Source: an uncultured Oscillospiraceae bacterium (lineage in GTDB: Bacteria > Bacillota > Clostridia > Oscillospirales > QAMX01). Taken from it: a stretch of 64,000 bases of DNA. The DNA is taken from positions 21,921-85,920 of the forward strand of contig CAZEUG010000001.1 in the NCBI GenBank assembly GCA_964515055.1, given 5' to 3'. How positions within the stretch are numbered: the first letter of the stretch is position 1; each line of letters begins with the position of its first letter. The notes under the pieces were generated by a model. The model was not told where the DNA came from. It searched no databases and saw only the letters and a list, made by a program, of their open reading frames with translations. Below are positions 605 to 47,989 of the stretch, piece after piece. Position numbers and translations under genes: made by a program.

Positions 605-606
605 TT

Positions 607-1503: not shown

Positions 1504-1520
1504 AAGGAGGTCGAGTCCGA

Positions 1521-3095: not shown

Positions 3096-3098
3096 AAG

Positions 3099-3731
3099 AT
3101 GGCAGAGCTTTGGAAACAGTTGCGCTATACGTCCCATGTCATGTTCCATCCTTTTGACGGTTTCTGGGATTTGAAGCATGAACATCGTGGCAGCATGAAG
3201 GCAGCCATCGTACTGATTGCGATGCTTGTCATCAATTCAATCCTCGGTACACAGTTCACGGGATTCCTGTATAACCCGAACTACGATGGCGTCAGCCTGA
3301 ACGTGTTCAGCCACTTTACGTCCGTCGTCGGCACATTCCTCCTGTGGTGTGTCTCCAACTGGTGTCTGACCACCCTCATGGATGGCGAAGGCAGCTTCAA
3401 AGACATTGTTATGGTCAGCGCCTACGCATTGGCTCCGCTGTTCGTGATCAACATCCCGCTGACCTTCATCAGCAACATCATGCCGCTGGACTATGAAGCG
3501 TTCTACAATATCATTAGTAATATTTCGGTTCTCTGGGCGGGCTTCCTGATGCTTTCGGGTCTGATGGTTGTCCACCAGTATTCCCTGGGCAAGACGCTGT
3601 TGACAGCCGTGTTGATCGTAGTCGGTATGGCAGTCATCGTCTTCCTTGGACTGTTGTTCTTCAACCTGATTTCTCAGTTGATCAGCTTTGTTGTCGAAAT
3701 CTACTGGGAACTTTCGCTCAGATACTTCTAA
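3099..3731 (+). CDS. Yip1-like polytopic membrane protein
   Basis: Starts 3 nt after the previous stop. About five hydrophobic helices follow a short cytoplasmic N-terminus (HPFDGFWDLKHEHRGS), which resembles bacterial Yip1-domain proteins. Family assignment is from memory. Confidence 0.6.
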   Translation: MAELWKQLRYTSHVMFHPFDGFWDLKHEHRGSMKAAIVLIAMLVINSILGTQFTGFLYNPNYDGVSLNVFSHFTSVVGTFLLWCVSNWCLTTLMDGEGSFKDIVMVSAYALAPLFVINIPLTFISNIMPLDYEAFYNIISNISVLWAGFLMLSGLMVVHQYSLGKTLLTAVLIVVGMAVIVFLGLLFFNLISQLISFVVEIYWELSLRYF

Positions 3732-3746
3732 AGGGGAGGTGCTTGG

Positions 3747-7705: not shown

Positions 7706-7717
7706 GAGTGTGTGTGA

Positions 7718-8683
7718 ATGGAAAAGATTGTCAAGAATCATACGACTACCTATCGGGAAACAACGTGGTTTGAACGGTTTCGTGCCAAGTACCTGTCGTG
7801 GCGGTTCCTTGCCACCGCGATCGGCAACATCTTTGCCTACGTTCTGACCATCGGAATTGCATTCGTCATTGTCTACCCGCTGCTCCGCCGTCTGAGTAAC
7901 GCATTCAAACCGGCCAGCGAATTCTATGACTCCTCGGTTGTGTATTTCCCGCGAAATCCAACCTTCCAGGTCATCAAGCAGGCATTTGATAAACTGAACT
8001 TCACGAAAGTCGGTCTGCCGTCCTTCCTGATGGCACTCTACGTCGGTCTGTCCCAGATGGTCGTCGCACTGGTCGTCGGCTACGGCTTCGCGAGATTCAA
8101 GTTCAAGGGCTCCAAGCTTCTCTTTGGCTGCGTCATCCTGACGCTGGTTGTTCCGCCGCAGACGATCCTGATTCCGCTGTATCTGCGGTTCCGTTACTTC
8201 GATATTCTCGGTATCATCGAAGCGATTACGGGCGATTCCGTGAAGCTGCTCGATACCTACTGGTGTCAGATCCTGCTTTCGGCAACCGGTATGGGCTGGA
8301 AAAACGGCCTCTACATCTATCTGATGCGTCAGTACTTCCGCGGTGTTCCGACCGCACTGGAAGAAGCTGCCTACATCGACGGTGCAAGAACCTTCAAGGC
8401 TTTTGTCAAGATCATGGTTCCGTCCGCACTGCCGACTATGTTGACCATCTTCCTGTTCTCCTTCTCGTGGCAATGGACCGATACGTTCTACACCGGCACG
8501 TTCCTGATCAATAAACGTCTGCTGGCGACGAGCGTCAACGCGATCAGCCATGACAACGAGATCATGCAGTTCAACCTGCAACAGACGGCCATCCTGATCA
8601 TCCTGATTCCGTTGATTTTGCTGTTCATCGTCACACAGCGCTATTTCGTCGAAGGAATCGAGCGTTCCGGTTTGACCGGCTGA
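7718..8683 (+). CDS. Carbohydrate ABC transporter permease (MalG type)
   Basis: EAA loop EAAYIDGARTFKAFVKIMVPSALP. Multi-TM. Followed by a strong terminator. Confidence 0.88.
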   Translation: MEKIVKNHTTTYRETTWFERFRAKYLSWRFLATAIGNIFAYVLTIGIAFVIVYPLLRRLSNAFKPASEFYDSSVVYFPRNPTFQVIKQAFDKLNFTKVGLPSFLMALYVGLSQMVVALVVGYGFARFKFKGSKLLFGCVILTLVVPPQTILIPLYLRFRYFDILGIIEAITGDSVKLLDTYWCQILLSATGMGWKNGLYIYLMRQYFRGVPTALEEAAYIDGARTFKAFVKIMVPSALPTMLTIFLFSFSWQWTDTFYTGTFLINKRLLATSVNAISHDNEIMQFNLQQTAILIILIPLILLFIVTQRYFVEGIERSGLTG

Positions 8684-35613: not shown

Positions 35614-36150
35614 ATGACAAACTACAATATCTTAATTGCGGGATTTGGCGGTCAGGGCATTCAGTTCGCAGGGAAACTGCTGACCTATATCGGAATGTAC
35701 ACCGGATTGGAGGTCTCCCTCTATCCGTCCTACGGCCCGGAAATGCGCGGCGGTACGTCGAACTGCGGCGTCAACATCAGCTCGGAGCCGATTGCTTCGC
35801 CGCTGGTTGTCAACCCGACTGAACTGATCGTCATGAACGGCCCGTCTCTCGATAAATTCGAAAGCACCACGGTGCCGGGCGGCAAAATCTTCTATGACAG
35901 CACGCTGATCGACCACAACGGCGGCCGGACAGATGTCACCTATTTTGCAGTGCCCGCCACAAAAATCGCAGAAGAAAACGGCATTGCCAAGCTGGCCAAC
36001 GTCATTATGTGCGGCAAGGTTCTGAAAGAAACCGGCCTGTGCGACATGGATGTGGCCGCGCCGATTATTCAAAAGCTCGTCCCGGCCAAAAAACCGGAGC
36101 TGTTTGATCTCAACATGAAAGCACTGAAAATCGGCTACTGCGACTGCTGA
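35614..36150 (+). CDS. korC: 2-oxoacid:ferredoxin oxidoreductase gamma subunit
   Basis: IAGFGGQGIQFAGKLL motif. Confidence 0.88.
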   Translation: MTNYNILIAGFGGQGIQFAGKLLTYIGMYTGLEVSLYPSYGPEMRGGTSNCGVNISSEPIASPLVVNPTELIVMNGPSLDKFESTTVPGGKIFYDSTLIDHNGGRTDVTYFAVPATKIAEENGIAKLANVIMCGKVLKETGLCDMDVAAPIIQKLVPAKKPELFDLNMKALKIGYCDC

Positions 36151-36174
36151 CCCCGAAAACAAATCGTCATAACC

Positions 36175-36212
36175 AAAAGAACCTGTTGCCTCGGACAACA
36201 GGTTCTTTTTTT
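36175..36212. terminator. Bidirectional terminator between convergent korC and ldh
   Basis: AAGAACCTGTTG-CCTCGGA-CAACAGGTTCTT with flanking A and T runs. Confidence 0.88.
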
Positions 36213-36248
36213 GATTGAATTGTTGGATGCAGCAGAAAAGCCGGAAAA

Positions 36249-37202
36249 TCAGATGCGCACCTGCGCAATGACGGCCTTCAGCGCATCGGCACTTTTCCGC
36301 AGCAGTGCGACTTCCGAATCGAGCAGCGGCGGGGCGATGGAACGCTTGATGCCCTGTGCGCCGAGGACAAACGGAATGCTCAGACAGACGTCGTTGATGC
36401 CGTACTGGTCGTGCAGCATGGAGGAGACGGTCATGACCGAGTCCGTGTCGCGAATGATGCAGTCGCAGAGGCAGGAAACGGAAATCGCGATGGCATAATA
36501 GGTGGCACTCTTCAGTGAGATGACCTTGGCACCGGCCGTTCGGACGTCCTCTTCAATCTCCTTCAACTCGACTTTGCCGCATTTGTTGTGCTTCGGACAG
36601 ATTTCCGTACAGTAGCGCGTCATTTCCAGACCGGCAATGGTCGTCAGAGACCAGGGAATCATAGCCGAGTCGCCGTGCTCGCCAAAGACATAGCCGTGTA
36701 CGCTTTTGGAGCTGAGCTGCATATGCGCCGCCAGCCGGGAGCGCAGACGGGCAGAATCCAGCATCGTGCCGGAGCCGATGACCTGATGCTCTGCCAGATT
36801 GGTGGTTTTCAGAATGGTGTAGGTGATGATGTCAACCGGGTTGCTGACAACGAGATAGACGGCGTCCGGCGCAATCGGCGTGATTTTCGGCATGACGGAT
36901 TTGACGATATCGATGTTGGCCTGCGCCAGATCGATGCGCGTCTGGCCGGCCTTCCGCGCCATGCCAACCGTGACGATGACGATGTCGCTGTCTACAGCGT
37001 CCTCATAGGTTCCGGCGTAGATGTTTACCGGGGAGCTGAACGGTGTTCCCTGAATGATATCCATCGCTTCACCGAGCGCCTTCCGCTCGTTGACATCGAC
37101 GAGGACAATCTCGGAGACCATCCCGGCAATCGTCAGGGTGTAGGCAATGGAGGCGCCCACATTGCCCGCGCCGAGAATTGTGATCTTTTTTCCTTTTTTC
37201 AT
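36249..37202 (-). CDS. ldh: L-lactate dehydrogenase
   Basis: KITILGAGNVGASIAYTL Rossmann motif, VTVGMARKAGQTRIDL and GEHGDS motifs. Confidence 0.92.
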   Translation of the reverse strand: MKKGKKITILGAGNVGASIAYTLTIAGMVSEIVLVDVNERKALGEAMDIIQGTPFSSPVNIYAGTYEDAVDSDIVIVTVGMARKAGQTRIDLAQANIDIVKSVMPKITPIAPDAVYLVVSNPVDIITYTILKTTNLAEHQVIGSGTMLDSARLRSRLAAHMQLSSKSVHGYVFGEHGDSAMIPWSLTTIAGLEMTRYCTEICPKHNKCGKVELKEIEEDVRTAGAKVISLKSATYYAIAISVSCLCDCIIRDTDSVMTVSSMLHDQYGINDVCLSIPFVLGAQGIKRSIAPPLLDSEVALLRKSADALKAVIAQVRI

Positions 37203-37325
37203 GGTGGAGTCCCTCCATGCAGATAGAATGGCAGCCCGGCCAGACCGGAACTGCGGTGAAAACCCTCAGAAGCCTCTGATGATTCGTGGAACGGAAATGG
37301 AGAACCATTCCGGTACCCCAATTCT

Positions 37326-37354
37326 ATTATAATACAAGCACGTGATTTTGTAAA
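37326..37354 (-). promoter_or_regulatory. SigA-type promoter for ldh
   Basis: On the minus strand: TTTACA, a 17-nt spacer, then TATAAT. Confidence 0.55.
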
Positions 37355-37375
37355 GAGAACGGTCGATCAAAGCGC

Positions 37376-37417
37376 AAAAAAAGTCAACGACCCGACAGCG
37401 GGTGGTTGACTTTTTTT
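37376..37417 (-). terminator. Terminator after the minus-strand Gfo/Idh/MocA gene (A/T runs on both sides)
   Basis: GTCAACGACCCG-ACAG-CGGGTGGTTGAC (one mismatch) flanked by A7 and T7 runs. Confidence 0.85.
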
Positions 37418-37437
37418 GCAGACTGCGTGCAGTGCCG

Positions 37438-38523
37438 TCAGTCAAAATAGATGGTTTTTCCGGTTTCGGCCGATGTGTAGATGGCTTCGATGATCTGCGA
37501 AACGACAGCTGCCTTCCGGCCGGGAGCCAGCAGGGGCGTCCCCTCCGTGATGGCGCTGATCCACTGGTTCATGTCGTACTGGCATTCATCCAGCTCACGC
37601 CCCTTGAAGAGGTCACGGGTGTAGCGGTTCGGTTCCAGCTCCTGAGTAAACAGCGAACCGTTGACTTCGCCGTTGATCCGGACGTGGCCGTTCTTCATGG
37701 AGAGCCCGGCGCGGTCGCCAACGATGATCGGTGTGTAGCCACACTGATCGGATTCCATGTTGATCGCCCAGGAGGCCTCAATGTGCATGGCACAGCCGTT
37801 CCGGAAGCGGATAAAGCCCATGGCGGAGTCCTCCACCTGGTACTCCTCCTCTGTAAACAGACGACCGTTGTTCGTTTCGGCGCATTTGGCACCCAGCTTC
37901 CGGTAGGAAACGCCGGTGACACTGGCGACGTCGTAGTTGTCGATGATAAACATGGCGGAGTCGATGGAGTGCGTGCCGATGTCGATCATGGGGCCGCCGC
38001 CCTGCTTTTCATAATCAAGGAAAACGCCCCAGGTCGGAATGCCGCGGCGGCGCAGATTGCGCGCCTTGACGTAGTAGACGTTGCCCAGCATTCCGTCGCG
38101 GACGACGTTGCGGGCGAGCTGGAACATGGCGGTGCTGCGCGTCTGATAGCCGACAGACAGGAGCTTCCCGGCTTTTTCAGCCGCCTCACACATGGCGAGC
38201 GCATCCGCATAGGTCTTGGCCATTGGCTTTTCGCTGTAGACGTGCTTTCCGGCCTTGAATGCGTCAATCGTGATGGGCGCATGGCTGGAGTTTGGCGTGC
38301 AGACGTGGACGGCTTCGATTTCGTCCATCGCGAGCAGCTCATGATAATCCTCAAAGACGCGGGCGCCTTCTACCCCGTATTCCCGGGCAGCCTTTTCGGC
38401 GCGCTCCCGAATGATGTCACAGAATGCGACAATCTGAATGTTTTCAACGCTTTTCAATCCGGGAAGATGCTTGCCGTTTGCAATTCCGCCGCATCCGATG
38501 ATGCCGACTTTTACAGGTCTCAT
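37438..38523 (-). CDS. Gfo/Idh/MocA family NAD(P)-dependent oxidoreductase (paralogue 1)
   Basis: MRPVKVGIIGCGGIANGKHLP Rossmann N-terminus and an EKPMA motif. The ATG at 38523 has a GGAGGA RBS. Confidence 0.85.
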   Translation of the reverse strand: MRPVKVGIIGCGGIANGKHLPGLKSVENIQIVAFCDIIRERAEKAAREYGVEGARVFEDYHELLAMDEIEAVHVCTPNSSHAPITIDAFKAGKHVYSEKPMAKTYADALAMCEAAEKAGKLLSVGYQTRSTAMFQLARNVVRDGMLGNVYYVKARNLRRRGIPTWGVFLDYEKQGGGPMIDIGTHSIDSAMFIIDNYDVASVTGVSYRKLGAKCAETNNGRLFTEEEYQVEDSAMGFIRFRNGCAMHIEASWAINMESDQCGYTPIIVGDRAGLSMKNGHVRINGEVNGSLFTQELEPNRYTRDLFKGRELDECQYDMNQWISAITEGTPLLAPGRKAAVVSQIIEAIYTSAETGKTIYFD

Positions 38524-38543
38524 ATCAAATCCTCCACTGTATC

Positions 38544-38561
38544 TGAGCACAGCCGTGCTCA
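38544..38561. promoter_or_regulatory. 18-nt palindrome in the leader of the minus-strand oxidoreductase gene (candidate operator or 5' hairpin)
   Basis: TGAGCAC-AGCC-GTGCTCA lies between the predicted -10 and the RBS. Confidence 0.3.
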
Positions 38562-38580
38562 TTCGATTTCTGACAGAATC

Positions 38581-38609
38581 AGTATAACACAATCGACCGT
38601 CAAATGCAA
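38581..38609 (-). promoter_or_regulatory. Candidate SigA-type promoter for the minus-strand oxidoreductase gene
   Basis: On the minus strand: TTGCAT, a 17-nt spacer, then TATACT. Confidence 0.45.
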
Positions 38610-38706
38610 TCCTGCTTCCGATGAAAAACGGACGGATTCATTTATCCTGAAGCGTGGTTGTTTGCAGGATATGGGAAAAAGTTTTTGAAAAAAAAGTGGA
38701 ACGCTG

Positions 38707-38735
38707 TTGAAATCAATGCACAAATCCTGTATAAT
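38707..38735 (+). promoter_or_regulatory. SigA-type promoter for the TIM-barrel / sulfatase-like / oxidoreductase operon
   Basis: TTGAAA, a 17-nt spacer, then TATAAT. Confidence 0.6.
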
Positions 38736-38801
38736 GAAGGTACCGGATTCTGCCGGCATCAAGGGGTCAAAAGCCCCATGCTTTGATCGGAGGAGATCTT
38801 T

Positions 38802-39599
38802 ATGATTCAGCTTGGCGTCAATACCGTTTTGTATAAGGCATTTTCTCTGCGGGAAGCCGTGGAAAATCTGAAAAAAATCGGCTATGACGGATTTGAAATT
38901 TCAGCCATTGAAGGAATGTGCGAACACCTGAACCTCAATGACTGGCGCAGTCAGAAAAATGAGATTTCGGAGCTCTGCGAAGAATTTGATATGAAAATTC
39001 TTGCGACAGAGGTGGCCAGCACGGATCCTGCCCGCCTGACGCTTGCATTTGAAGCGGCCAGAGAACTGGGCATCCCTGTTGTCAACATCGGCCCGCGGGG
39101 CAAATCCGATGATGAAGCCGATCTGGTCGACTGCATCGCCCACATGAACACGCTGGCAAAGCTCGCCGAAAGCTATGAAGTGACGCTGTGCATGAAGGCA
39201 CACGTCGGCTCCAGCGTCTACAGCACACCGACTACACTTCGCATGATCGAAGGCGTCAAGAATCCGTACTTCGGAATCGATATGGACCCCAGCCATATTT
39301 TCCGCTGCGGAGAGGAACCGGAGAACGCACTGTCCGCCGTTCTCCCGGCCATGCGTCATATCCATATCCGTGACTGCCACGGAAGACAGCAATCGCCCGG
39401 CCTGCCGCTTCAGCAGACCTGCGGCACAGGTGATATCAATTTGCGCGGCTATCTGGCCGAAATGGTCAAGCAGGGCTATCAGGGCCCGGTCGATCTCGAA
39501 GTGATCGGACCGGAACTGTCGCTGGCGGATGCCAACATCGTCGCCGCCGAGAGCTACGGTTATCTGAATGCCTGCCTGAAAGAGCTGGGCGCCCGCTGA
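38802..39599 (+). CDS. Xylose isomerase-like TIM-barrel protein (sugar phosphate isomerase/epimerase family)
   Basis: The N-terminus LGVNTVLYKAFSLREAVENLKKIGYDGFEIS and the HIHIRD metal-site motif are typical of this fold. Confidence 0.8.
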   Translation: MIQLGVNTVLYKAFSLREAVENLKKIGYDGFEISAIEGMCEHLNLNDWRSQKNEISELCEEFDMKILATEVASTDPARLTLAFEAARELGIPVVNIGPRGKSDDEADLVDCIAHMNTLAKLAESYEVTLCMKAHVGSSVYSTPTTLRMIEGVKNPYFGIDMDPSHIFRCGEEPENALSAVLPAMRHIHIRDCHGRQQSPGLPLQQTCGTGDINLRGYLAEMVKQGYQGPVDLEVIGPELSLADANIVAAESYGYLNACLKELGAR

Positions 39600-39615
39600 A
39601 AAGGAGGACTTTCTA

Positions 39616-41001
39616 ATGAAAAAAAAGCCGAATATTCTGTTCCTTGGCATTGATTCCTGCCGAGCCCTCAATCTGAGCCTCTGCGGGTATCACCGCCAGA
39701 CCACGCCGCATATCGACCGCATGGCGGAGGACGGCGTCAATTTCGTCAACTGCTTCTCTCCGAGCATTCCGACCCCTCCGGGCTATTCCGCACTGCTGAC
39801 CGGTCGGGACTGCTTCGGCACCGGCGTCGTGACGCTGCGCAATGTGCCGGAACTCGAAAAGGGCATCACGCTGCAGGAAGAACTGGCCAAAAACGGCTAC
39901 AACTGCACCTGCATCGGCTTCGGTGAGGAACCGTATACCCATGGCTTCCATAAATACATCAACTACTCCGGCTGGGGCGCAGACCGCCCGGACGGCAAAT
40001 CGCACAAAGCGGAAAACATGAACGACGTCGCCATCCCCGAGCTGAAACGCCTGGCCGCGGAGGATCAGCCGTTCTTCCTCTTCCTGCGCCACATGGATCC
40101 GCATTCCCCGTACCTCCCGCCGGCACCGTTCGACCGGATGTTCCACTCCGGTGACGAATGCGACCCGAACAACCACTCCCTGGACGATCTCTACAACTTC
40201 AAACCGTTCCGCGACTATTTCTGTGAATGGTTCCCGGCCGGATGCACCGACAAGGAATATGTCAACGCCCAGTACGACGGCGCCATCGCCTACATGGACA
40301 GCTGCATTCAGCGCATCTTCACCACTGTGAAGGAACTCGGCATCGAGGACGAAACGCTGATTGTTCTGACGAGTGACCACGGCGAAACGCTGGACGAGCA
40401 TGAATGCTACTATGACCACCACGGCCTGTATGAATGCACGCTGCACGTCCCGCTGGTCTTCAAATTCCCGGGCATTGTGCCGGAAGGCTATGTGTTTGAC
40501 GATTATGTCCAGCAGAAGGACGTCATGCCGACGATCCTGGAGCTGCTTGGCATCGAGACTGACCTGAAATTCGACGGCCGCAGCCTTGTCCCGTTCTGGA
40601 CGGGCGAAGAACGCGCTGCCGAACCGGAAATGTACCTGACCGAGTCCACCTGGATGCGGAAGCACGGCTGGCGGACACCGGAATGGAAGCTGATCGTCGC
40701 ACTGGAGCCGGACTTCCACTTCAAGCCACAGGTGGAGCTCTACAACCTGATCAAGGATCCGGACGAGCTGCATAACGTCGCAGACGAGGAACCGGAAGTC
40801 GTGAAAATGCTCACCAAGCGCATGGAAGACCACATCGCAAAGCGCAAAGCGGCCTACCAGACGGAAAACCCGATCGACCTGGCCGGAACGAAATGGAACC
40901 CGCTGGGCCGTCCGTTCGAATCCTGCGAGGAAGCGTACAACACCCTGCACATCGGCGACGCCAGCGCGGCACAGAAGCTCCAGTCGCACGAAAAGAAATA
41001 A
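39616..41001 (+). CDS. Sulfatase-fold (alkaline phosphatase superfamily) enzyme lacking the Cys/Ser-x-Pro-x-Arg formylglycine motif; no signal peptide
   Basis: NILFLGIDSCRALNLSLCGY, TSDHGE and the overall layout match type I sulfatases. The position of CxPxRxxxLTG reads TPPGYSALLTG. Confidence 0.75.
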   Translation: MKKKPNILFLGIDSCRALNLSLCGYHRQTTPHIDRMAEDGVNFVNCFSPSIPTPPGYSALLTGRDCFGTGVVTLRNVPELEKGITLQEELAKNGYNCTCIGFGEEPYTHGFHKYINYSGWGADRPDGKSHKAENMNDVAIPELKRLAAEDQPFFLFLRHMDPHSPYLPPAPFDRMFHSGDECDPNNHSLDDLYNFKPFRDYFCEWFPAGCTDKEYVNAQYDGAIAYMDSCIQRIFTTVKELGIEDETLIVLTSDHGETLDEHECYYDHHGLYECTLHVPLVFKFPGIVPEGYVFDDYVQQKDVMPTILELLGIETDLKFDGRSLVPFWTGEERAAEPEMYLTESTWMRKHGWRTPEWKLIVALEPDFHFKPQVELYNLIKDPDELHNVADEEPEVVKMLTKRMEDHIAKRKAAYQTENPIDLAGTKWNPLGRPFESCEEAYNTLHIGDASAAQKLQSHEKK

Positions 41002-41019
41002 GCAGAACCGGAGAAGGAT

Positions 41020-42021
41020 ATGCAAAGAGTTTGTGTGATTGGCCTTGGCCATATCGGAAATCTGCATTCGCGGATTTATCAGGGGTGCCAGGAGGCAGAG
41101 CTGGTCGGCGTGTGCGACCTGATTGAGGAGCGTGCAGCGGCCGCCGGAAAGGTCTATGGCGTTCCGTACTACCTGGACGCACAGCAAATGCTGGACGAGC
41201 TGAAGCCCGATCTGTGCAGCGTTGCGACAGGCGGCTATGAATACAGCTCAGACCATTACAAGCCGTCCATGCAGGTGCTGGCCTCCGGCGCACATCTGCT
41301 GTGCGAGAAGCCAATTTCCAATGACATCGGCCATGCGCGGGAAATGGTGGAGCTGGCAGAAAAGAACCATCGCTGCTTTGGCATCGACTTCAACCACCGC
41401 TTCACCCCGGCTTCCTTTGCCGCGGAACGCTGGCAGAAGGAAGGCCGCCTGGGTGACCTGCTGTTCTGCAATATGGCGCTCTGGATTGGCAAGCCCGGCT
41501 CCTTTGAATCGCCGTATTACCACCTCAAGGCGCTGAACCCGCATAGCGTGGACATGATGCGCCACTTCATGGGCGATGTCGAAAAGGTGCAGTGCTTCGC
41601 GATGAAAGCACCGGGGCGCGATATCTGGTCGAGCGCATCCATCAATATGTATTTCAAAAATGGAACCATCGGCCACCTGACCTCCAGCTATGACCTGGCT
41701 CGCGGTCATCCGATGGAACGCTGCGAGGTTGCTGGAACCAGGGGGAGAATGGTCATCGAGGATATGTGGCGCGAAGCGACACTGTACCCGGCTGACGATA
41801 TGACCAAGCTCTGCTATACGAATCCGGTCTTCGGCGGTTATTCCAACTTTGACGATACGTTCCGCTGCCGTATTGAGACGTTCGTCCGACAGGTGGACGG
41901 TGGTGCAGCACCGGAGGAGATCAACGGCAGCGGCCGGGACGGCCTGGAGGCGCAGCGCGTCATCCATGCGGCGATCAGAAGTCTGGATGAAGGACGGATC
42001 GTCGAGGTTGCCGAAATTTGA
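41020..42021 (+). CDS. Gfo/Idh/MocA family oxidoreductase (paralogue 2)
   Basis: MQRVCVIGLGHIGNLH Rossmann N-terminus and a CEKPIS motif. Confidence 0.85.
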   Translation: MQRVCVIGLGHIGNLHSRIYQGCQEAELVGVCDLIEERAAAAGKVYGVPYYLDAQQMLDELKPDLCSVATGGYEYSSDHYKPSMQVLASGAHLLCEKPISNDIGHAREMVELAEKNHRCFGIDFNHRFTPASFAAERWQKEGRLGDLLFCNMALWIGKPGSFESPYYHLKALNPHSVDMMRHFMGDVEKVQCFAMKAPGRDIWSSASINMYFKNGTIGHLTSSYDLARGHPMERCEVAGTRGRMVIEDMWREATLYPADDMTKLCYTNPVFGGYSNFDDTFRCRIETFVRQVDGGAAPEEINGSGRDGLEAQRVIHAAIRSLDEGRIVEVAEI

Positions 42022-42101
42022 CCCATCCCTGCATGAATTTGTCCCCAAACCCCGGCCGGCGTGTGCCGGGAAAACCATAAAAAACAGGAGTTGACATACT
42101 T

Positions 42102-43214
42102 ATGGCGATTAAAACAGGCGTCGTTGGTATGGGCGGCATCGGTTATACCCATGCACGCGCATATGCGGCGGACCCGCTGGCAGAGCTGATTGCTGTCTGC
42201 GATATCAACCGCGAAGTGGCCGACAAGGCCGCGGAAGAATTCCACGTCAAAGCGTATTATTCGCTCAAGGAAATGATCGAATCGGAGCCCGATCTGGAAG
42301 CCGTCTCGATCTGCACCAGCGGCTACGAAAACGCTTCCTTCCACTTTGAACCGGCCATGGAAGCCCTGTCCTACGGGAAAAAGGTGCTCTGCGAGAAGCC
42401 GCTCTGCGCGGACATCCGCGATGCGCGTGAGCTGGTCAAATACGCTCTGGACAACAAGCTCTATCTGGGCTGCGACCTGAACCACTATTTCACAGACCTT
42501 GCCCTGCAGGCCAAAAAGCTGCAGGAGGAAGGCAACATCGGCGAGCTGGCCTACTGCCTCCATAAGGTCGGCTTTGACGGCAGCGAAATCGGCTACGGCG
42601 GCGTCAATGACCCGAAATCCCGTTGGCTCAAGCCGTATTCCCACTGCAAGGCCTTCCTGACGCATCCGTTCTCCGTCATGCGCTACTTCTGCGGCGATAT
42701 CACCCACGTCCAGGCCTTCCTGGATCGTCCGGGCGTCCGCAAGACGGCGGGAGATCCGATGCTCTCCATCAACAGCGTCAACTGCAAGTTTGAAAAAGGC
42801 GGCGTCGGCGTCCTGCTCAGCCAGCGCGGCGATGCGCGGTTTGGTCTCGGCGGCTGGTGGAGCTATGAGCATGCCGGTACACGCGGCACGTTCTGCATCG
42901 AAAACTGCGTCGAAAAGCTGACGTATTGGCCGGGTCAGCGCAAAAACGAAGAGGGCAAACTCGAAATGCCTGAACCGGAAGTCACCAATACTGGCATCAA
43001 GAACTTTGATGCGACCTTCCCGAAGCGGATTCACGCCTGGCTGGAGGATCTGACCAACAAGGTTCACTACGAATTCATCCGCGCCTCCGGCCGCGATGCA
43101 CTGGCCACCCTCGAATACATCGAAGCGGTCATCCAGTCCTACGAAGCAGGCGGCGAGATGGTTCGTCCGCATCCGCTGCCGGCGATCCACGGCACCCCGG
43201 AATATATTCACTGA
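42102..43214 (+). CDS. Gfo/Idh/MocA family oxidoreductase (paralogue 3)
   Basis: IKTGVVGMGGIGYTHARAY Rossmann N-terminus and a CEKPLC motif. Its last 51 nt lie inside the tandem repeat. Confidence 0.85.
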   Translation: MAIKTGVVGMGGIGYTHARAYAADPLAELIAVCDINREVADKAAEEFHVKAYYSLKEMIESEPDLEAVSICTSGYENASFHFEPAMEALSYGKKVLCEKPLCADIRDARELVKYALDNKLYLGCDLNHYFTDLALQAKKLQEEGNIGELAYCLHKVGFDGSEIGYGGVNDPKSRWLKPYSHCKAFLTHPFSVMRYFCGDITHVQAFLDRPGVRKTAGDPMLSINSVNCKFEKGGVGVLLSQRGDARFGLGGWWSYEHAGTRGTFCIENCVEKLTYWPGQRKNEEGKLEMPEPEVTNTGIKNFDATFPKRIHAWLEDLTNKVHYEFIRASGRDALATLEYIEAVIQSYEAGGEMVRPHPLPAIHGTPEYIH

Positions 43215-43223
43215 CCTTTCAAA

Positions 43224-43267
43224 CCGCCTCTCCGATGCGCTCCAATCGCCCGGAGAGGCGGTTTTTC
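43224..43267 (+). terminator. Rho-independent terminator after oxidoreductase paralogue 3 (inside repeat copy 1)
   Basis: CCGCCTCTCCG...CGGAGAGGCGG followed by TTTTT. Confidence 0.85.
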
Positions 43268-43409
43268 TGTCGATTGCCCCGGACTGCTAACCGCCAGGGA
43301 CGCAAACGGCCGCACCGCCCCGTGTGCAACGAGTGGTCAGGCAGATCAAGGCCGGGACTGATTCCATCCGGATTCAGCCCCGGTTTTGGTGCGGAAAAAG
43401 AAGAGGTTC

Positions 43410-43438
43410 TTGCAATTTTTACATTTAAAGCGTATAAT
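43410..43438 (+). promoter_or_regulatory. SigA-type yggS promoter, copy 1
   Basis: TTGCAA, a 17-nt spacer, then TATAAT. Confidence 0.6.
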
Positions 43439-43510
43439 AAAAAAGACGATCGGAACCTGCAACGGACAGTACCCGAACCGCCCAAACCAAGCGAATGGAA
43501 GATGAATTGC

Positions 43511-44071
43511 ATGACAGAGCCGGAAACCAACCGGATTCAGGATATCCAACAGAAAATCAAAGCCATCCAGCTGCGCGTCGCCGAAAGTGCAGCACACGCC
43601 GGGCGGACGCCCGCCTCTGTCACCCTGCTGGCGGCGACAAAAACGCGAACCTGCGACGAGGTGCGCGCAGCCATTGATGCCGGAATTGACGCCGTCGGCG
43701 AAAACCGCGTGCAGGAGCTACGCGATAAGCTCGCGCTGCACGCATACGACGGCTGCCCGCTGCACCTGATCGGCCCACTGCAAACCAACAAGGTGAAATA
43801 CCTGATCGGCCATGTCGCCATGATTCACTCGGTTGATTCAACCCATCTGGCCGATTGCATCCAGCAGCTGTCAGCACGTGCTAATGTGCAGACGGACGTC
43901 CTGATCGAGGTCAACATCGGCGGAGAGGCCAGTAAATCCGGTGTCACCCCGACAGACGCACAGCGGTTGGCAGAGCATCTCCTGACGCTGTCCGCAGTTC
44001 GCCTGCGCGGACTGATGACCCGTCCGCATCCGCTGCCGGCGATCCACGGCACCCCGGAATATATTCACTGA
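43511..44071 (+). pseudogene. Chimeric ORF: first 170 codons of yggS fused in frame to the last 16 codons and stop of the upstream oxidoreductase
   Basis: The translation ends ...LRGLMT|RPHPLPAIHGTPEYIH*. It lacks the YggS C-terminal third (the SMGMSRD...RVGSAIFG region). It has its own promoter, RBS and terminator copies. Confidence 0.8.
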
Positions 44072-44080
44072 CCTTTCAAA

Positions 44081-44124
44081 CCGCCTCTCCGATGCGCTCC
44101 AATCGCCCGGAGAGGCGGTTTTTC
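44081..44124 (+). terminator. Duplicate of the 43224 terminator (inside repeat copy 2)
   Basis: Identical sequence at +857. Confidence 0.85.
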
Positions 44125-44266
44125 TGTCGATTGCCCCGGACTGCTAACCGCCAGGGACGCAAACGGCCGCACCGCCCCGTGTGCAACGAGTGGTCAGGCA
44201 GATCAAGGCCGGGACTGATTCCATCCGGATTCAGCCCCGGTTTTGGTGCGGAAAAAGAAGAGGTTC

Positions 44267-44295
44267 TTGCAATTTTTACATTTAAAGCGTATAAT
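44267..44295 (+). promoter_or_regulatory. SigA-type yggS promoter, copy 2
   Basis: Identical to 43410-43438. Confidence 0.6.
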
Positions 44296-44367
44296 AAAAA
44301 AGACGATCGGAACCTGCAACGGACAGTACCCGAACCGCCCAAACCAAGCGAATGGAAGATGAATTGC

Positions 44368-45102
44368 ATGACAGAGCCGGAAACCAACCGGATTCAGGAT
44401 ATCCAACAGAAAATCAAAGCCATCCAGCTGCGCGTCGCCGAAAGTGCAGCACACGCCGGGCGGACGCCCGCCTCTGTCACCCTGCTGGCGGCGACAAAAA
44501 CGCGAACCTGCGACGAGGTGCGCGCAGCCATTGATGCCGGAATTGACGCCGTCGGCGAAAACCGCGTGCAGGAGCTACGCGATAAGCTCGCGCTGCACGC
44601 ATACGACGGCTGCCCGCTGCACCTGATCGGCCCACTGCAAACCAACAAGGTGAAATACCTGATCGGCCATGTCGCCATGATTCACTCGGTTGATTCAACC
44701 CATCTGGCCGATTGCATCCAGCAGCTGTCAGCACGTGCTAATGTGCAGACGGACGTCCTGATCGAGGTCAACATCGGCGGAGAGGCCAGTAAATCCGGTG
44801 TCACCCCGACAGACGCACAGCGGTTGGCAGAGCATCTCCTGACGCTGTCCGCAGTTCGCCTGCGCGGACTGATGACCATTCCACCGGTCGGAGAAGAGCC
44901 GCGCCGCTATTTTGCGACCATGCGCACGCAGTTTGAGCAGATGCGTCAAAATCTGCCGGCTTCATTTGATACACTGTCTATGGGCATGAGCCGTGATTTC
45001 GAAACGGCCATTGAAGAAGGTGCAACCATTGTCCGCGTGGGCAGCGCGATTTTCGGCGCCCGCCCGGCCAATCCGGTTCGGAAAGCGGAGGAACAGGCAT
45101 GA
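44368..45102 (+). CDS. yggS: YggS-family pyridoxal-phosphate homeostasis protein (intact copy)
   Basis: LLAATKTR (PLP Lys), GENRVQEL, HLIGPLQTNKVKY, LRGLMTIPP and LSMGMSRDFETAIEEGATIVRVGSAIFG motifs. The start is 44368 or 44359. The ORF-track start at 44092 is rejected. Confidence 0.88.
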   Translation: MTEPETNRIQDIQQKIKAIQLRVAESAAHAGRTPASVTLLAATKTRTCDEVRAAIDAGIDAVGENRVQELRDKLALHAYDGCPLHLIGPLQTNKVKYLIGHVAMIHSVDSTHLADCIQQLSARANVQTDVLIEVNIGGEASKSGVTPTDAQRLAEHLLTLSAVRLRGLMTIPPVGEEPRRYFATMRTQFEQMRQNLPASFDTLSMGMSRDFETAIEEGATIVRVGSAIFGARPANPVRKAEEQA

Positions 45103-45425
45103 GCCATAAATCAGAAAATGTCGCCTTTGTCTGCGAAAACTGTGGAAAAGAAGTGCAGCCGGTGACAAACGGCAGCTATCGGAATCACTGCCCCTATTGC
45201 CTCTGCTCCAAACACGTAGACTGCCTGCCCGGCGATCGCGCAAGCACCTGCGGCGGAATTATGGATCCGGTCGGCATCCTTTACAATCCGGCCAAGGGCT
45301 GGCAGCTGATTCATCAATGCCGCACGTGCGGTACGCGCTCCAAAAACCGAATCGCGGAAGCGACCATCCAGGAAGACGACCAGGCGCAGATCCGCGCACT
45401 CATGCAGCGAACCGCCAGAGCATAA
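45099..45425 (+). CDS. RNHCP-domain zinc-ribbon protein
   Basis: Contains the literal SYRNHCPYC motif plus CENCG and CRTCG Cys pairs. Its ATG overlaps the yggS TGA (ATGA). Confidence 0.75.
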   Translation: MSHKSENVAFVCENCGKEVQPVTNGSYRNHCPYCLCSKHVDCLPGDRASTCGGIMDPVGILYNPAKGWQLIHQCRTCGTRSKNRIAEATIQEDDQAQIRALMQRTARA

Positions 45426-45454
45426 CGAACCCTTCAGAAAGGTACGGCTACACC

Positions 45455-47989
45455 ATGAATGCACAAACAACCAAACCGTTTCCAAAACTGTCAGAAACGG
45501 CAAAAAAACGCATTGGAATCCTTGAAAAAATTCTGAGAGTCATCGGTAAAGTTCTGGTGACCATTCTGCTCATTCTCCTGTTTACGGGGGTGCTTTGCGC
45601 CGGTGCGTTTGGCCTGTATGTTCGAAAATACCTGCAGCCGGATGTCGACATCGACATTGGCAATATCCGCATGAATTACTCCTCCGTCATCTACGCGACC
45701 AATTCGACCACCGGCGAGAAGACGGAGCTGACACGCCTGTACGGGACGGAAAACCGCGTGTGGGCGAACTACGATCAAATCCCGAAAAATCTGGTGGACG
45801 CCTTTATCGCCATCGAGGATGAACGCTTTGAAAGCCACAAGGGCGTGGACTGGAAGCGAACCATCGGCGCAACCATCAACCTGATCATGCCGTTTTCCTC
45901 CAACTTCGGCGGTTCCACAATCACGCAGCAGGTGATCAAAAACATCACCGGCGACAGCGAGCCGACGATTCAGCGCAAGGTTCTGGAAATCCTCCGTGCG
46001 CTGAATCTTGAACGCCAGCTCTCAAAAGACCAGATTATGGAGATCTACCTGAATACCATCAACCTGAGTCAGGGCTGCTACGGCGTCAGTTCGGCGGCGT
46101 ATGTCTACTTCGGCAAGGAGGTCAGCGACCTGAACCTGGCCGAATGCGCCTGCATCGCCGGGATTACCAACAGCCCTACCTACTACGACCCCTTCCAGAA
46201 CCCGGACAACAACAAGCGCCGTCAGGAGCTGATTCTGGGCAAAATGCTCGAGCTGGGCAAAATTTCACAGAATGAATATGAACGGGCCATCGGCGAGACG
46301 CTGGCCTTTCGGAAATATGACGATGAGGACAACAGCACCACCAACGTGCAGTCGTATTTTGTCGATCTGCTGATCAACGAACTCATCACGGAGCTGAAGG
46401 AAACCTACGGTTATTCGAACACCATCGCCTACAAAATGCTGTATGCGGGCGGCCTGACCATCGAGGCGACCATCGACCCCCGGGTGCAGGCGGCGATTGA
46501 ACAGGTCTATGCCGATCGGGACAATTTCCCGACCGTCAGAGGGACGACACAGCTTGAATCTGCTATGACGATTTTCTCCCCGGACGGCCGCCTGCTCGGC
46601 GTCGTCGGCGGAATCGGCACCAAATACGGGAATCTCGTCCTCAACCGCGCCGTTGCCAGACGCTCACCGGGTTCCTCCATCAAACCGATCAGCGTCTACG
46701 CTCCGGCCATCGAATATGGCCTGATCACGCCATACAGCGTGCTGGATGACTCGCCCTCCAAAATCATCAACAGCTCCGGCGCACTGGTTGAACCGGAATC
46801 TGCCATTCTGATCGGCGGGAACGAGCTCTCTGCATGGCCGGCCAACCAGAACCGCACGTATTCCGGCCGAACCACCATAACGACAGCTGTGGCCAAATCG
46901 CTGAATACCATTCCGGTTCGCGTGCTCGATCTGATGTCGCTGGAAACTGCCTTCCAGTTCGCGACGGAAAACTTCGGGCTGAGCCTGTTGCACCAGCAAA
47001 CCGTCAACGGGGTCTATTATGACGATATGACCTACTCGGCTCTGGCACTCGGCGGCGTCAGCCGCGGCGTTTCGCTGCTGGAAATGACGGCGGCCTATGT
47101 CCCATTTCTGAACGACGGGATTTATGTGGAGCCGACCACCTACCTGCGTGTGCTCGACTCGGACGGAAACGTCCTGATTGATCATACCGCCCGGGAAAAT
47201 GTCGCAATTTCCGCCGATACGGCGTATTATATGCGCGCCATGCTGGAAAACGTGGTGAAAAACGGTACCGGTTCCGCTGCATCACTCAACGGAATTTCCG
47301 TGGCCGGGAAAACCGGTACGACCTCCAACGACTATGATCGGTGGTTCATCGGCTTCACGCCGTATTACGTCGGCGGCGTCTGGTTCGGCTTCGATCTGCA
47401 GAAGGAAATCACCGGCCTGTCGGCCAACCCGGCCGTTTCCACCTGGAAACAGGTCATGGAAATTCTGCATGAAGATCAGCCGGCTGCAACCTTTGAAACA
47501 CTACCCAACCTGCAAACGTATTCCTACTGCCTCGACAGCGGCGGCATCCCAACGGCGGCCTGCAAGGCTGACCCCCGCGGCAGCCGCGTCGCCTACGGGA
47601 AATTCCAGCCGGAGGATGCGCCAAAGTCGCTCTGCTCCATGCATACAACGGTTCAGGTCTGCAGCGAATCAGGCAAGCTCGCCCGCGCACACTGCCCGGA
47701 GGAATCGCTGACAACCGTTTCGCGCCTGAATCTCTACCGCTATTTTGCGGTGCCGAATGTCTCGGTGGCCGACGAGAAATATACCGTCCACTTTGAAGGC
47801 ATCCTCTCCGAACGCATCCTTTCGTATTATTACCCGGCAACCTGCTCTGACGGCTACGCGCTGGAAGGACAGTGCACGATTCATGTCACCGCACCGCAGC
47901 CGACCGACCCGGATGTGACCGATGAAACCGGCGGGACGGATTTCCAACCGATTGAGCCGCCGGAGCCGGATATCACCCCGGACGACTGA
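45455..47989 (+). CDS. Class A penicillin-binding protein (PBP1A-type glycosyltransferase/transpeptidase)
   Basis: N-terminal TM. GT51 motifs (AFIAIEDERFESHKGVD, GGSTITQQ). Transpeptidase SxxK (PGSSIKP) and KTG (GKTGTT). The ATG at 45455 is chosen. Confidence 0.9.
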   Translation: MNAQTTKPFPKLSETAKKRIGILEKILRVIGKVLVTILLILLFTGVLCAGAFGLYVRKYLQPDVDIDIGNIRMNYSSVIYATNSTTGEKTELTRLYGTENRVWANYDQIPKNLVDAFIAIEDERFESHKGVDWKRTIGATINLIMPFSSNFGGSTITQQVIKNITGDSEPTIQRKVLEILRALNLERQLSKDQIMEIYLNTINLSQGCYGVSSAAYVYFGKEVSDLNLAECACIAGITNSPTYYDPFQNPDNNKRRQELILGKMLELGKISQNEYERAIGETLAFRKYDDEDNSTTNVQSYFVDLLINELITELKETYGYSNTIAYKMLYAGGLTIEATIDPRVQAAIEQVYADRDNFPTVRGTTQLESAMTIFSPDGRLLGVVGGIGTKYGNLVLNRAVARRSPGSSIKPISVYAPAIEYGLITPYSVLDDSPSKIINSSGALVEPESAILIGGNELSAWPANQNRTYSGRTTITTAVAKSLNTIPVRVLDLMSLETAFQFATENFGLSLLHQQTVNGVYYDDMTYSALALGGVSRGVSLLEMTAAYVPFLNDGIYVEPTTYLRVLDSDGNVLIDHTARENVAISADTAYYMRAMLENVVKNGTGSAASLNGISVAGKTGTTSNDYDRWFIGFTPYYVGGVWFGFDLQKEITGLSANPAVSTWKQVMEILHEDQPAATFETLPNLQTYSYCLDSGGIPTAACKADPRGSRVAYGKFQPEDAPKSLCSMHTTVQVCSESGKLARAHCPEESLTTVSRLNLYRYFAVPNVSVADEKYTVHFEGILSERILSYYYPATCSDGYALEGQCTIHVTAPQPTDPDVTDETGGTDFQPIEPPEPDITPDD

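Follow-up and report, generated by a model that had tools for sequence, protein, structure and literature searches.

Can an enzyme with the fold of a type I (S1) sulfatase work without formylglycine (FGly)? The question is raised by one open reading frame in a 64,000-nucleotide stretch of DNA from an uncultured Oscillospiraceae bacterium (the whole of this stretch is called the window below). Sulfatases are thought to be absolutely dependent on FGly, and this dependence complicates both sulfatase annotation and heterologous production because a maturase is needed. An earlier note, made from the sequence alone, proposed that the protein has Thr in place of the Cys or Ser from which FGly is made, and that it may be an FGly-independent enzyme with a Thr nucleophile. 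From the comparisons described below we consider it probable that the ORF encodes an active, cytoplasmic, FGly-independent metalloenzyme of the alkaline phosphatase (AP) superfamily that uses a Thr nucleophile. With a TIM-barrel protein and a Gfo/Idh/MocA dehydrogenase it would act on a substrate that resembles a carbohydrate or cyclitol and is linked to the metabolism of sulfate esters or PAPS. The features of the locus are collected in Table 1.

Table 1. Features of the Thr-type sulfatase locus (positions in the window; 9koq is the E. faecium arylsulfatase EfAS)
Feature	Position	Strand	Basis or remark
Third Gfo/Idh/MocA oxidoreductase GfoA, divergently transcribed	37438..38562	-	PF01408/PF02894
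Promoter-like site TTGAAA-17-TATAAT, 11/12 match	38707..38735	+	Consensus scan only; 67 nt before TIM-barrel start
Xylose-isomerase-like TIM-barrel protein, first cassette gene	38802..39599	+	PF01261, E=4e-26
Shine-Dalgarno AGGAGG	39602..39607	+	Read from sequence; 8 nt before ATG, 3 nt after TIM-barrel stop codon
Thr-type sulfatase-fold enzyme, 461 aa, predicted cytoplasmic	39616..41001	+	PF00884 + SGSH_C
D13-S14; D13 is the first metal ligand (D20 of 9koq)	39652..39657	+	Invariant; profile alignment
T53-P-P-G-Y57-S-A-L-L-T-G, replacing the FGly motif (C/S)-x-P-x-R-x-x-x-L-T-G	39772..39804	+	Alignments
F102-G-E104, replacing sulfate-binding Lys-x-His (K110/H112 of 9koq)	39919..39927	+	Profile alignment
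H159-M-D161-P-H163; H163 matches the conserved active-site His (H220 of 9koq)	40090..40104	+	Alignment, conservation
D254-H255, metal ligands (D311/H312 of 9koq)	40375..40380	+	Invariant; profile alignment
H262-E-C-Y-Y-D267-H268-H269; D267 or H268 replaces sulfate-binding Lys (K324 of 9koq)	40399..40422	+	Alignment
Gfo/Idh/MocA oxidoreductase GfoB, 18 nt downstream of the Thr-type gene	41020..42021	+	PF01408/PF22725
Second Gfo/Idh/MocA oxidoreductase GfoC	42102..43214	+	PF01408, E=7e-27

A sulfatase fold with threonine at the formylglycine position

A Pfam scan of the ORF gives a Sulfatase match (PF00884, E=3e-41) over residues 5–313 and an SGSH_C match (E=8e-19), so that both the N-terminal domain and the C-terminal subdomain that define the S1 fold are present. 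The AF2 model (pLDDT 82, pTM 0.86) agrees with this assignment, the best 50 Foldseek matches in the PDB all being S1 sulfatases or phosphonate monoester hydrolases (PMH) with TM scores of 0.58–0.69. The fold landmarks named in the earlier note, NILFLGIDSCRALN at the N-terminus, TSDHGE at residues 252–257 and LYNLIKDPDELHN at residues 375–387, are all in place, and the metal ligands are kept. There is also a partial match to PF01663 (the NPP family) of 42 bits against a cut-off of 23, the best stretch of which is 38 residues around D254-H255. No signal peptide is present in the sulfatase-like protein. Its conserved first beta-strand starts at residue 6 and the Shine-Dalgarno sequence lies 8 nt before its ATG, which bears out the claim that it has no export signal; the protein is predicted to be cytoplasmic.

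The motif in Table 1 translates exactly as TPPGYSALLTG (ORF residues 53–63). In phmmer alignments to the solved FGly sulfatases 4uph, 7oz8 and 6pt6, T53 lies on the FGly position and Y57 on the motif Arg, and the same placement results when a family profile built from 36 sequences is aligned to EfAS and 4uph. In EfAS T53 and Y57 correspond to C61 and R65, both of which are essential by mutagenesis; our motif numbering was verified against these mutagenised residues (PMC12421950). The S1 signature (C/S)-x-(P/A)-x-R is thus broken at two places relative to all four proteins, by Thr at the nucleophile position, where the profile puts neither Cys nor Ser, and by Tyr at the Arg that maturation needs, as had been seen by eye. 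Every one of the 121 homologues that share 61% identity or more carries both T53 and Y57, and a chance mutation or sequencing error can therefore be dismissed. The wider clade was sampled by representatives of 50%-identity clusters; 127 of these are informative at the nucleophile position, and 120 have Thr there. Two other serines, S48 and S50, were ruled out as the FGly precursor: the combination of a +2 Pro with a +4 Arg is found at neither, and 25 of the 121 homologues have His instead of S50.

The previously noted absence of an anSME or FGE-like gene from the 64-kb window held in two scans: no Radical_SAM, SPASM or FGE-sulfatase match was found in the roughly 50 window ORFs scanned, which were all but four short ones, and CxxxCxxC is absent from every window ORF of at least 120 aa.

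Metal ligands and a remodelled anion pocket

The S1 metal ligands, Asp and Asp-[Asn/His/Gln], are represented by D13, D254 and H255. These three residues, T53, Y57, H163 and H268 are invariant (121 homologues; 36-sequence alignment), and about 20 more polar residues, besides the metal ligands and T53, are invariant across phyla. In the AF2 model T53 opens a helix (residues 53–62), D13 follows the strand 6–12 and D254-H255 follow the strand 247–253. The combination of a Thr/Ser nucleophile with an Asp/Glu and Asp-His metal site is found at the level of sequence equivalence and predicted secondary structure.

The sulfate- and FGly-binding Lys-x-His and Lys of S1 sulfatases are K113, H115 and K375 in P. 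aeruginosa AtsA and K110, H112 and K324 in EfAS. The Thr-type protein has F102, E104 and D267 or H268 there instead; which of the last two replaces the catalytic Lys depends on the placing of a single alignment gap, and a gap-free alignment to Cys-type paralogues puts the Lys on D267. We compared 333 Thr-type sequences with 19 neighbouring Cys/Ser-type sequences at these positions. The residues listed for the Thr-type sequences are Tyr, His and Phe at position 57, Phe, Asn and Ser at 102 (Lys is not among the five commonest) and Asp and Glu at 267, with no Arg or Lys listed; the Cys/Ser-type neighbours have R57 in 16/19, K102 in 8/19 and K267 in 12/19. The cationic pocket of the FGly sulfatases has thus changed as a set, with Arg becoming Tyr, Lys-x-His becoming Phe-x-x and Lys becoming Asp (or His).

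H159 and D161 are invariant and specific to the Thr-type family, and we infer that they are candidate ligands of a second metal. The invariant D161, H163, D267 and H268 are likewise candidates, of which D267 and H268 lie in a loop (residues 261–271, carrying D267-H269) that is modelled with pLDDT below 50.

A widespread family with a conserved gene cassette

At E ≤ 1e-30 the wider clade amounts to 6375 representative clusters. Its orthologues of the window gene, which are at least 57% identical across phyla, come from at least 584 species genomes. Database entries for clade members are labelled simply "sulfatase". Neither the size and spread of the clade nor its PAPS-linked conserved cassette was mentioned in the earlier note.

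The cassette order, TIM barrel, Thr-type gene, Gfo/Idh/MocA dehydrogenase, is found in 73–75 of 83 orthologous loci from at least eight phyla. A TIM-barrel homologue (median identity 55%) lies within 5 kb in 73 of the 83, and a homologue of GfoB, the most conserved neighbour (median identity 63%), lies within the same distance in 75. The nearest named models to GfoB are inositol 2-dehydrogenase and sugar 3-dehydrogenases, all of which it matches far under their cut-offs. No fusion of the sulfatase-like protein to a TIM-barrel or Gfo protein was found in the 83 loci, and the cassette showed no sugar kinase gene.

Genes of sulfate metabolism accompany the cassette in all three ortholog lineages, as a sulfotransferase, as ATP sulfurylase/APS kinase in Bacilli or as Cys-type sulfatases, according to lineage. 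A sulfotransferase gene is directly downstream, 4–200 bp away, in 21 loci, 15 Bacillota loci carry a genuine APS kinase, some of them together with ATP sulfurylase, and Cys-type sulfatases are found at 14 loci (Clostridia and Paenibacillus). PAPS or sulfotransferase genes occur at only about 44% of loci, and none adjoins the cassette in the window's own Clostridia lineage.

Proposed mechanism and alternative readings

The invariance of T53 and of D13, D254 and H255, together with the set-wise remodelling of the pocket, leads us to favour the FGly-independent Thr nucleophile first suggested in the earlier note; the activity is a predicted one. D13, D254 and H255 would hold a divalent metal that activates the hydroxyl of T53 at the N-terminus of its helix, and T53 would attack an anionic ester at its S or P centre to give a covalent sulfo- or phospho-threonyl intermediate, which water or an acceptor would then resolve. 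Around FGly and sulfate, true sulfatases place an Arg, a Lys-x-His and a Lys; their counterparts here are Tyr57, Phe102 and Asp267. The invariant residues gained by the family, H159, D161, D267, H268 and H269, could build a second metal site of the kind known from NPP and alkaline phosphatase. As partners the enzyme would have the neighbouring TIM-barrel protein and one or more of the Gfo/Idh/MocA dehydrogenases, and the substrate is expected to be carbohydrate- or cyclitol-like. The evidence conflicts on which group is transferred: all characterised Thr/Ser enzymes of the superfamily that we know of carry out phosphoryl transfer, but the neighbouring genes speak for sulfate. As an approximate estimate, phosphoryl-type chemistry seems the leading candidate, while falling short of probable, sulfuryl transfer is possible and somewhat less favoured, and some other chemistry is unlikely.

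Several observations would suit an enzyme that is truly a sulfatase, or a sulfuryl transferase, without FGly: the nearest relatives in sequence and in fold are without exception S1 sulfatases or PMH, sulfate-metabolism genes are linked in all three lineages, and a sugar kinase was not seen in the cassette. In this reading T53 would attack sulfur to form a sulfo-threonine intermediate, and the enzyme would remove or relocate sulfate derived from the neighbouring PAPS sulfotransferase or from an imported sulfated sugar. However, the sulfate-binding Arg and two Lys of genuine sulfatases are gone; a sulfo-alkyl intermediate is unable to collapse as the FGly hemiacetal does, and we know of no Ser/Thr enzyme of the superfamily that is an efficient sulfatase, so we regard this reading as a serious but rather doubtful one. 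Slightly more tentative still is the idea that an FGly-independent sulfate-ester enzyme with Thr, together with a PAPS sulfotransferase, the TIM-barrel protein and NAD-dependent sugar dehydrogenases, would make up a new cytoplasmic pathway in which a carbohydrate is transiently sulfated, not phosphorylated, and then desulfated. Thr and candidate second-metal chemistry could also be reconciled with the PAPS gene context if the enzyme performed phosphoryl transfer on a sulfonucleotide, as a PAP 3'-phosphatase or an APS/PAPS phosphosulfate hydrolase supporting the sulfotransferase step; the partial PF01663 match favours this, and the high orthologue identity across phyla would suit a small universal substrate. 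Such a role is unlikely given that the Thr-type gene is universal in the cassette and the PAPS and sulfotransferase genes are not, being absent from the window's lineage, and it does not account for the close tie between this gene and its TIM-barrel and Gfo neighbours.

The loss of the canonical nucleophile and of four sulfate-pocket residues would be expected of a catalytically dead pseudo-enzyme that acts as a subunit of the neighbouring enzymes, for binding or as a scaffold, and Thr-bearing PF00884 proteins are not demonstrably sulfatases according to the authors of SulfAtlas (PMC5066984). The invariance across phyla of Thr, D13, D254, H255 and the further polar residues is a pattern typical of an active site, and makes this very unlikely. 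The most improbable of the alternatives is a maturation of T53 to 2-amino-3-oxobutyrate, a keto residue that in its hydrated form would act like FGly, with the adjacent NAD-dependent Gfo/Idh/MocA dehydrogenase as maturase. Gfo is indeed the most constant neighbour, and oxidation of Thr would yield a ketone, as the SulfAtlas paper remarks (PMC5066984), but there is no precedent for such a maturation, the residues that stabilise the FGly gem-diol (Arg and Lys) are exactly those lost, and Gfo and TIM-barrel pairs are ordinary partners in sugar oxidation and isomerisation or elimination.

Relationship to known enzymes

The S1 FGly sulfatase and PMH branch (EfAS, 9koq; A. radiobacter PMH, 4uph; BT1918, 7oz8) shares the whole two-subdomain fold with the Thr-type protein and supplies the best sequence matches of the family profile (E 1e-39). 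The metal ligands Asp and Asp-His of PMH and EfAS are alike, with His as the fourth ligand, as are the active-site His (H163, H220 of EfAS) and the L-T-G tail of the motif. The two differ in that the branch uses Cys or Ser (as FGly) and a maturase, and the Thr-type protein Thr, which would need no maturase. We note that the Mn-dependent arylsulfatase EfAS is not itself a Thr enzyme, as it uses Cys/FGly.

Other PF00884 proteins, LtaS, the EptA/MCR phosphoethanolamine transferases, OpgB and YejM, have Thr at the nucleophile position and a similar Asp/Glu and Asp-His metal site without FGly. Unlike the Thr-type protein they are membrane-anchored, extracytoplasmic lipid-headgroup transferases, and the LtaS/EptA group lacks the match to the sulfatase C-terminal subdomain. 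The EptA, LtaS, MCR and YejM models match at E 1e-10 to 1e-12 over about 60–110 residues and at 20–47 bits against NCBIfam cut-offs of 400–1250, and the PF01663 cut-off is passed over 38 residues only, so that the protein belongs to none of these curated families. NPP and alkaline phosphatase have a comparable metal-activated Thr/Ser nucleophile and, possibly, a comparable Asp/His/His second-metal site; the NPP motif T-F-P-N-H-Y-S-I-V-T-G resembles the T-x-P-[GS]-[YH]-x-S-[ILM]-x-T-G of the Thr-type clade. They form a separate family, however, and the candidate second-metal ligands of the Thr-type protein have the spacing D-x-H instead of D-x-x-x-H.

Thr at the FGly position of sulfatase-profile proteins has been flagged before. 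In the SulfAtlas paper 30 of 59 Pfam PF00884 seed sequences bear Thr, including a TxNxE group, and these uncharacterised proteins were left out of family S1 (PMC5066984). The clade described here differs from the TxNxE group in its T-x-P-G-Y motif, in being far closer to genuine S1 sulfatases and in having a defined cassette. In the literature searched we found no characterised member of the clade and no description of the cassette; the nearest statements are the SulfAtlas remark on Thr-bearing proteins and one on an essential "sulfatase", its role unexplained, in the ascamycin gene cluster.

This is a very large clade in which the S1 sulfatase fold is kept, Thr is swapped in and the anion pocket is rebuilt. 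Should its members be phosphatases or phosphodiesterases, thousands of annotations would be wrong, as would the sulfatase counts in glycan-degrading bacteria that are in wide use for Planctomycetota, Verrucomicrobiota and gut Clostridia. If they act on sulfate esters, they would represent a new catalytic solution, and sulfatase-type enzymes could be expressed without a maturase. The conserved cassette and its link to sulfotransferase and PAPS synthesis offer a concrete experimental system.

Other features of the locus

GfoA, upstream of the TIM-barrel gene, has counterparts elsewhere: 15 other loci also have a further Gfo gene on the upstream side of the TIM gene. A search of 36000–45500 gave no riboswitch and no match to any other Rfam family. 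Two downstream "alanine-racemase-like" ORFs were considered as cassette members and rejected, since their homologues adjoin the module at just one further locus. One of the two is a YggS-family gene and the other a truncated copy of it that derives from a perfect 857-bp tandem duplication.

Threonine at the formylglycine position

The Thr-type enzyme is a 461 amino acid sulfatase-fold protein whose gene has an AGGAGG Shine-Dalgarno sequence 8 nt 5' of its ATG, lies 16 nt past the preceding gene's stop codon and 18 nt short of the next gene; these short gaps indicate that it is an internal operon gene. In Pfam, PF00884 (Sulfatase) matches residues 5–313 (3e-41) and the sulfatase C-terminal subdomain SGSH_C is also matched (8e-19). 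Curated arylsulfatase, PehA and choline-sulfatase models give E-values of 1e-34 to 1e-53 and those for the Thr-using EptA, LtaS and YejM weaker values of 1e-8 to 1e-12; none of the models scanned, these included, reaches its cut-off, and by sequence the protein is far closer to the former group. Its homologues are labelled "sulfatase", "sulfatase-like hydrolase/transferase" or "arylsulfatase A-like enzyme" in the databases.

The earlier note had placed T53, from an alignment by eye, where formylglycine (FGly) sulfatases have Cys or Ser. In phmmer alignments with 4uph (A. radiobacter phosphonate monoester hydrolase), 7oz8 (BT1918) and 6pt6, T53 of the segment T53-P-P-G-Y57-S-A-L-L-T-G pairs with the Cys/Ser of (C/S)-x-P-x-R and Y57 with its Arg, and a 36-member family profile reproduces both placements against 4uph and the Enterococcus faecium arylsulfatase EfAS (9koq), with T53 and no Cys or Ser at the nucleophile position. 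These alignments, together with the match between our EfAS numbering (9koq chain count, offset +4) and that of the enzyme's paper, show that the by-eye alignment was right, and the motif Arg is indeed missing. The landmarks NILFLGIDSCR, TSDHGE and LYNLIKDPDELHN listed in that note are all in the ORF. By profile alignment D13, S14, T53, Y57, F102, E104, H163, D254 and H255 correspond to EfAS D20, Q21, C61, R65, K110, H112, H220, D311 and H312, respectively, and D267 or H268 to K324; mutagenesis found each of these ten EfAS residues to be required for activity (PMC12421950).

In an AlphaFold2 model (mean pLDDT 82, pTM 0.86), T53 opens helix 53–62, strand 6–12 is followed by D13 and strand 247–253 by D254-H255, a predicted placement that corresponds to the standard alkaline-phosphatase superfamily core; loop 261–271, which bears D267-H268-H269, is modelled with low confidence. 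The best 50 Foldseek PDB matches are all S1 sulfatases or phosphonate monoester hydrolases (TM 0.58–0.69, 18–22% identity). The protein has no signal peptide, since its N-terminus is the first β-strand, and the window has no Radical_SAM, SPASM or FGE-sulfatase match (about 50 ORFs against Pfam, four short ORFs left out), both as the earlier note had stated. No window ORF of 120 amino acids or more has a CxxxCxxC cluster.

Conservation and the anion pocket

T53 and Y57, like D13, S14, P52 and G63, are unchanged in 121 of 121 sequences (the query and 120 database homologues of 61–88% identity), and H159, D161, H163, D254, H255, H262, D267, H268 and H269 are also invariant in a 36-sequence alignment. 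When 1.84 billion cluster representatives were searched exhaustively with HMMER, 6375 matched at E <= 1e-30; among the best 150 of these, Thr is present in 120 of the 127 that cover the motif. The wider clade has the signature D-[TS]-x-R ... T-x-P-[SGA]-[HYF]-x-[ST]-x-x-[TS]-G ... H-Y-W-D-P-H-x-P-Y ... S-D-H-G-E ... F-D-H-H-G.

Common searches and loci yielded 333 Thr-type and 19 Cys/Ser-type sequences for comparison. Both types have D13, H163, D254, H255 and H268. The Thr types have Tyr/His/Phe at position 57, Phe/Asn/Ser at 102 and Asp/Glu at 267, with neither Arg nor Lys among the residues listed at these positions, whereas the Cys/Ser types have Arg (16/19), Lys (8/19) and Lys (12/19), respectively. 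The nucleophile co-varies with the anion pocket: the active site has been remodelled in concert, and such remodelling is the pattern of changed chemistry, not of decay.

Three proteins inside the Thr clade (P0185, P0204 and P0205) have a Cys nucleophile and retain other clade signatures (HYWDPHTPY and similar), P0205 with a complete C-V-P-S-R motif, so nucleophile type may have switched more than once. Six further members (P0135, P0137, P0141, P0146, P0237 and P0244) are 900–1550 amino acids long, with either two to four matches to the sulfatase-like domain or large extra regions around it.

A conserved cassette with sulfate-related neighbours

The gene lies between those for a xylose-isomerase-like TIM barrel and GfoB, a Gfo/Idh/MocA dehydrogenase. 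These two proteins have only remote likeness to inositol 2-dehydrogenase, sugar 3-dehydrogenases, IolE and ribulose-phosphate epimerase, and all their scores against characterised-enzyme models are far under the cut-offs.

Features of the window and of orthologous loci (L handles)
Feature	Location	Strand	Remarks
GfoA	37438-38562	-	divergent transcription
Promoter-like site	38707-38735		between GfoA and TIM barrel
TIM barrel	38802-39599		upstream neighbour of Thr-type enzyme
Thr-type enzyme	39616..41001	+	sulfatase-fold
T53–G63 motif	39772-39804		exact translation
GfoB	41020-42021		directly after Thr-type enzyme
GfoC	42102-43214		after GfoB
857-bp repeat	43164-44020, 44021-44877		100% identical units
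Chimeric ORF	43235-44071		truncated
YggS-family gene	44092-45102		intact copy
Putative glycan-utilisation locus	32-8683
ABC permeases	32-1503		glycan locus
Two ORFs	6698-7705, 7718-8683		glycan locus
Sulfate-activation genes	L044 13850-15646; L025 13981-17559; L001 12459-13007; L054 4854-6812	same as cassette	right after cassette
Three consecutive sulfatase-fold genes (Paenibacillus)	L001 13004-14407 and 14404-15798		same layout in L014, L016, L026, L065, L066, L068, L078
Downstream Sulfotransfer_3	L019, L021, L024, L028, L031-L037, L045, L048, L052, L054, L056, L058, L060, L064, L067, L081, L082
PF07100 small protein	L025 7712-8122		141 bits

With one genome scanned per species, at least 584 genomes have an orthologue; the best 80 loci (57–88% identity) come from Clostridia, Bacilli, Armatimonadota, Planctomycetota, Verrucomicrobiota, Chloroflexota, Spirochaetota, Lentisphaerota and others. 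Among 83 loci compared, several of which lack a partner on truncated contigs, 73 have a TIM-barrel homologue within 5 kb and 75 a GfoB homologue, at median identities of 55% and 63%, respectively. Pre-computed Pfam annotations repeat the cassette order on independent contigs, where AraC regulators, sugar or Opp-type ABC importers and glycoside hydrolases lie nearby; the cassette showed no sugar kinase.

In a neighbour-joining tree the orthologues fall into three broad groups, non-Firmicute, Bacilli and Clostridia. In the first, 21 loci have a same-strand Sulfotransfer_3 gene 4–200 bp 3' of the orthologue; its products are 57–73% identical to the BLAST query, the sulfotransferase of locus L019, whose PAPS-binding motifs look intact by eye. 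Fifteen Bacilli loci have an APS kinase 1–5.5 kb downstream, called genuine by TIGR00455 (208 bits, cut-off 139), and in Bacillus AraC comes next after the cassette, then ATP sulfurylase (342 bits), then a CitMHS/Na-sulfate-symporter-type transporter and finally APS kinase; Bacilli loci with sulfate-activation genes have no sulfotransferase homologue. One Brocadiia locus has a CysN/CysC fusion together with the sulfotransferase. In Paenibacillus operons, consecutive genes encode the T-P-G-Y enzyme, another Thr-type paralogue with I-P-T-E-[VA]-A-H and a cytoplasmic sulfatase of the Cys type (C-x-P-A-R). The Clostridia group, to which the window belongs, has neither sulfotransferase nor sulfate-activation genes adjacent to the cassette, and seven of its loci have a cytoplasmic C-x-P-A-R sulfatase. 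These neighbours connect the cassette with sulfate-ester or PAPS metabolism in all three lineages, by different genes each time.

Possible function

The evidence best supports an active, FGly-independent metalloenzyme, in agreement with the Thr-nucleophile reading of the earlier note. A metal on D13, D254 and H255 would activate T53 as nucleophile, the role that Thr has in NPP, LtaS and EptA. In the alignment three cationic pocket residues are gone, one replaced by Asp, and the family has gained invariant H159, D161, D267, H268 and H269, which makes a second metal site resembling that of NPP or AP plausible. A pseudo-enzyme is very improbable, given that neither the metal ligands nor the Thr varies between phyla. 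The SulfAtlas authors state that Thr oxidation would give a ketone, not FGly (PMC5066984). A keto-Thr cofactor produced by the adjacent dehydrogenase seems even less credible than a pseudo-enzyme.

For the proposed metalloenzyme, mechanistic precedent favours phosphoryl transfer, since to our knowledge all Ser/Thr superfamily members that have been characterised carry it out, and FGly is generally explained by the very difficulty of resolving a sulfo-alkyl intermediate. Gene context, with its neighbouring sulfotransferase, sulfate-activation or Cys-type sulfatase genes, favours sulfate as the group handled. The two lines would agree if the substrate were a sulfonucleotide (PAP, PAPS or APS), which leaves the universal coupling to TIM and Gfo genes unexplained.

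The characterised Thr members LtaS, EptA/MCR, OpgB and YejM are membrane-anchored transferases and only remote relatives of the Thr-type enzyme. Many other Thr-bearing proteins are matched by PF00884, including 30 of its 59 Pfam seed sequences, and the SulfAtlas authors hold that they should not be called sulfatases without evidence (PMC5066984). The sequences are public and the general idea of Thr-bearing PF00884 proteins is known; neither the clade nor its concerted active-site change nor its gene context has been characterised, and the literature searched contained no description of a soluble S1-like Thr clade or of the cassette. The clade is no surprise in principle, yet the family is large, well delimited and open to testing: if its members are phosphatases, thousands of annotations need correcting, and if they are maturase-free sulfate-ester enzymes, they represent new sulfatase chemistry.

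Other features

The small PF07100 protein (Anabaena sensory-rhodopsin-transducer family) is encoded just upstream of the cassette in L025 and six other loci, and PhyH-family dioxygenases occur in 11 loci. The remaining window genes are housekeeping (Mfd, PBPs, ribosomal proteins, MurB, WhiA, DnaE, DnaB, FtsH). In a perfect tandem duplication the repeated unit covers the final 51 bases of GfoC and extends to the middle of a YggS-family PLP-protein gene, giving a chimeric ORF ahead of the intact copy; the duplication is either a very recent event or an assembly artefact. The separate putative glycan-utilisation locus also encodes, by Pfam, an NHL-repeat protein, a Yip1-domain protein and a 983 amino acid DUF5696 protein (552 bits).
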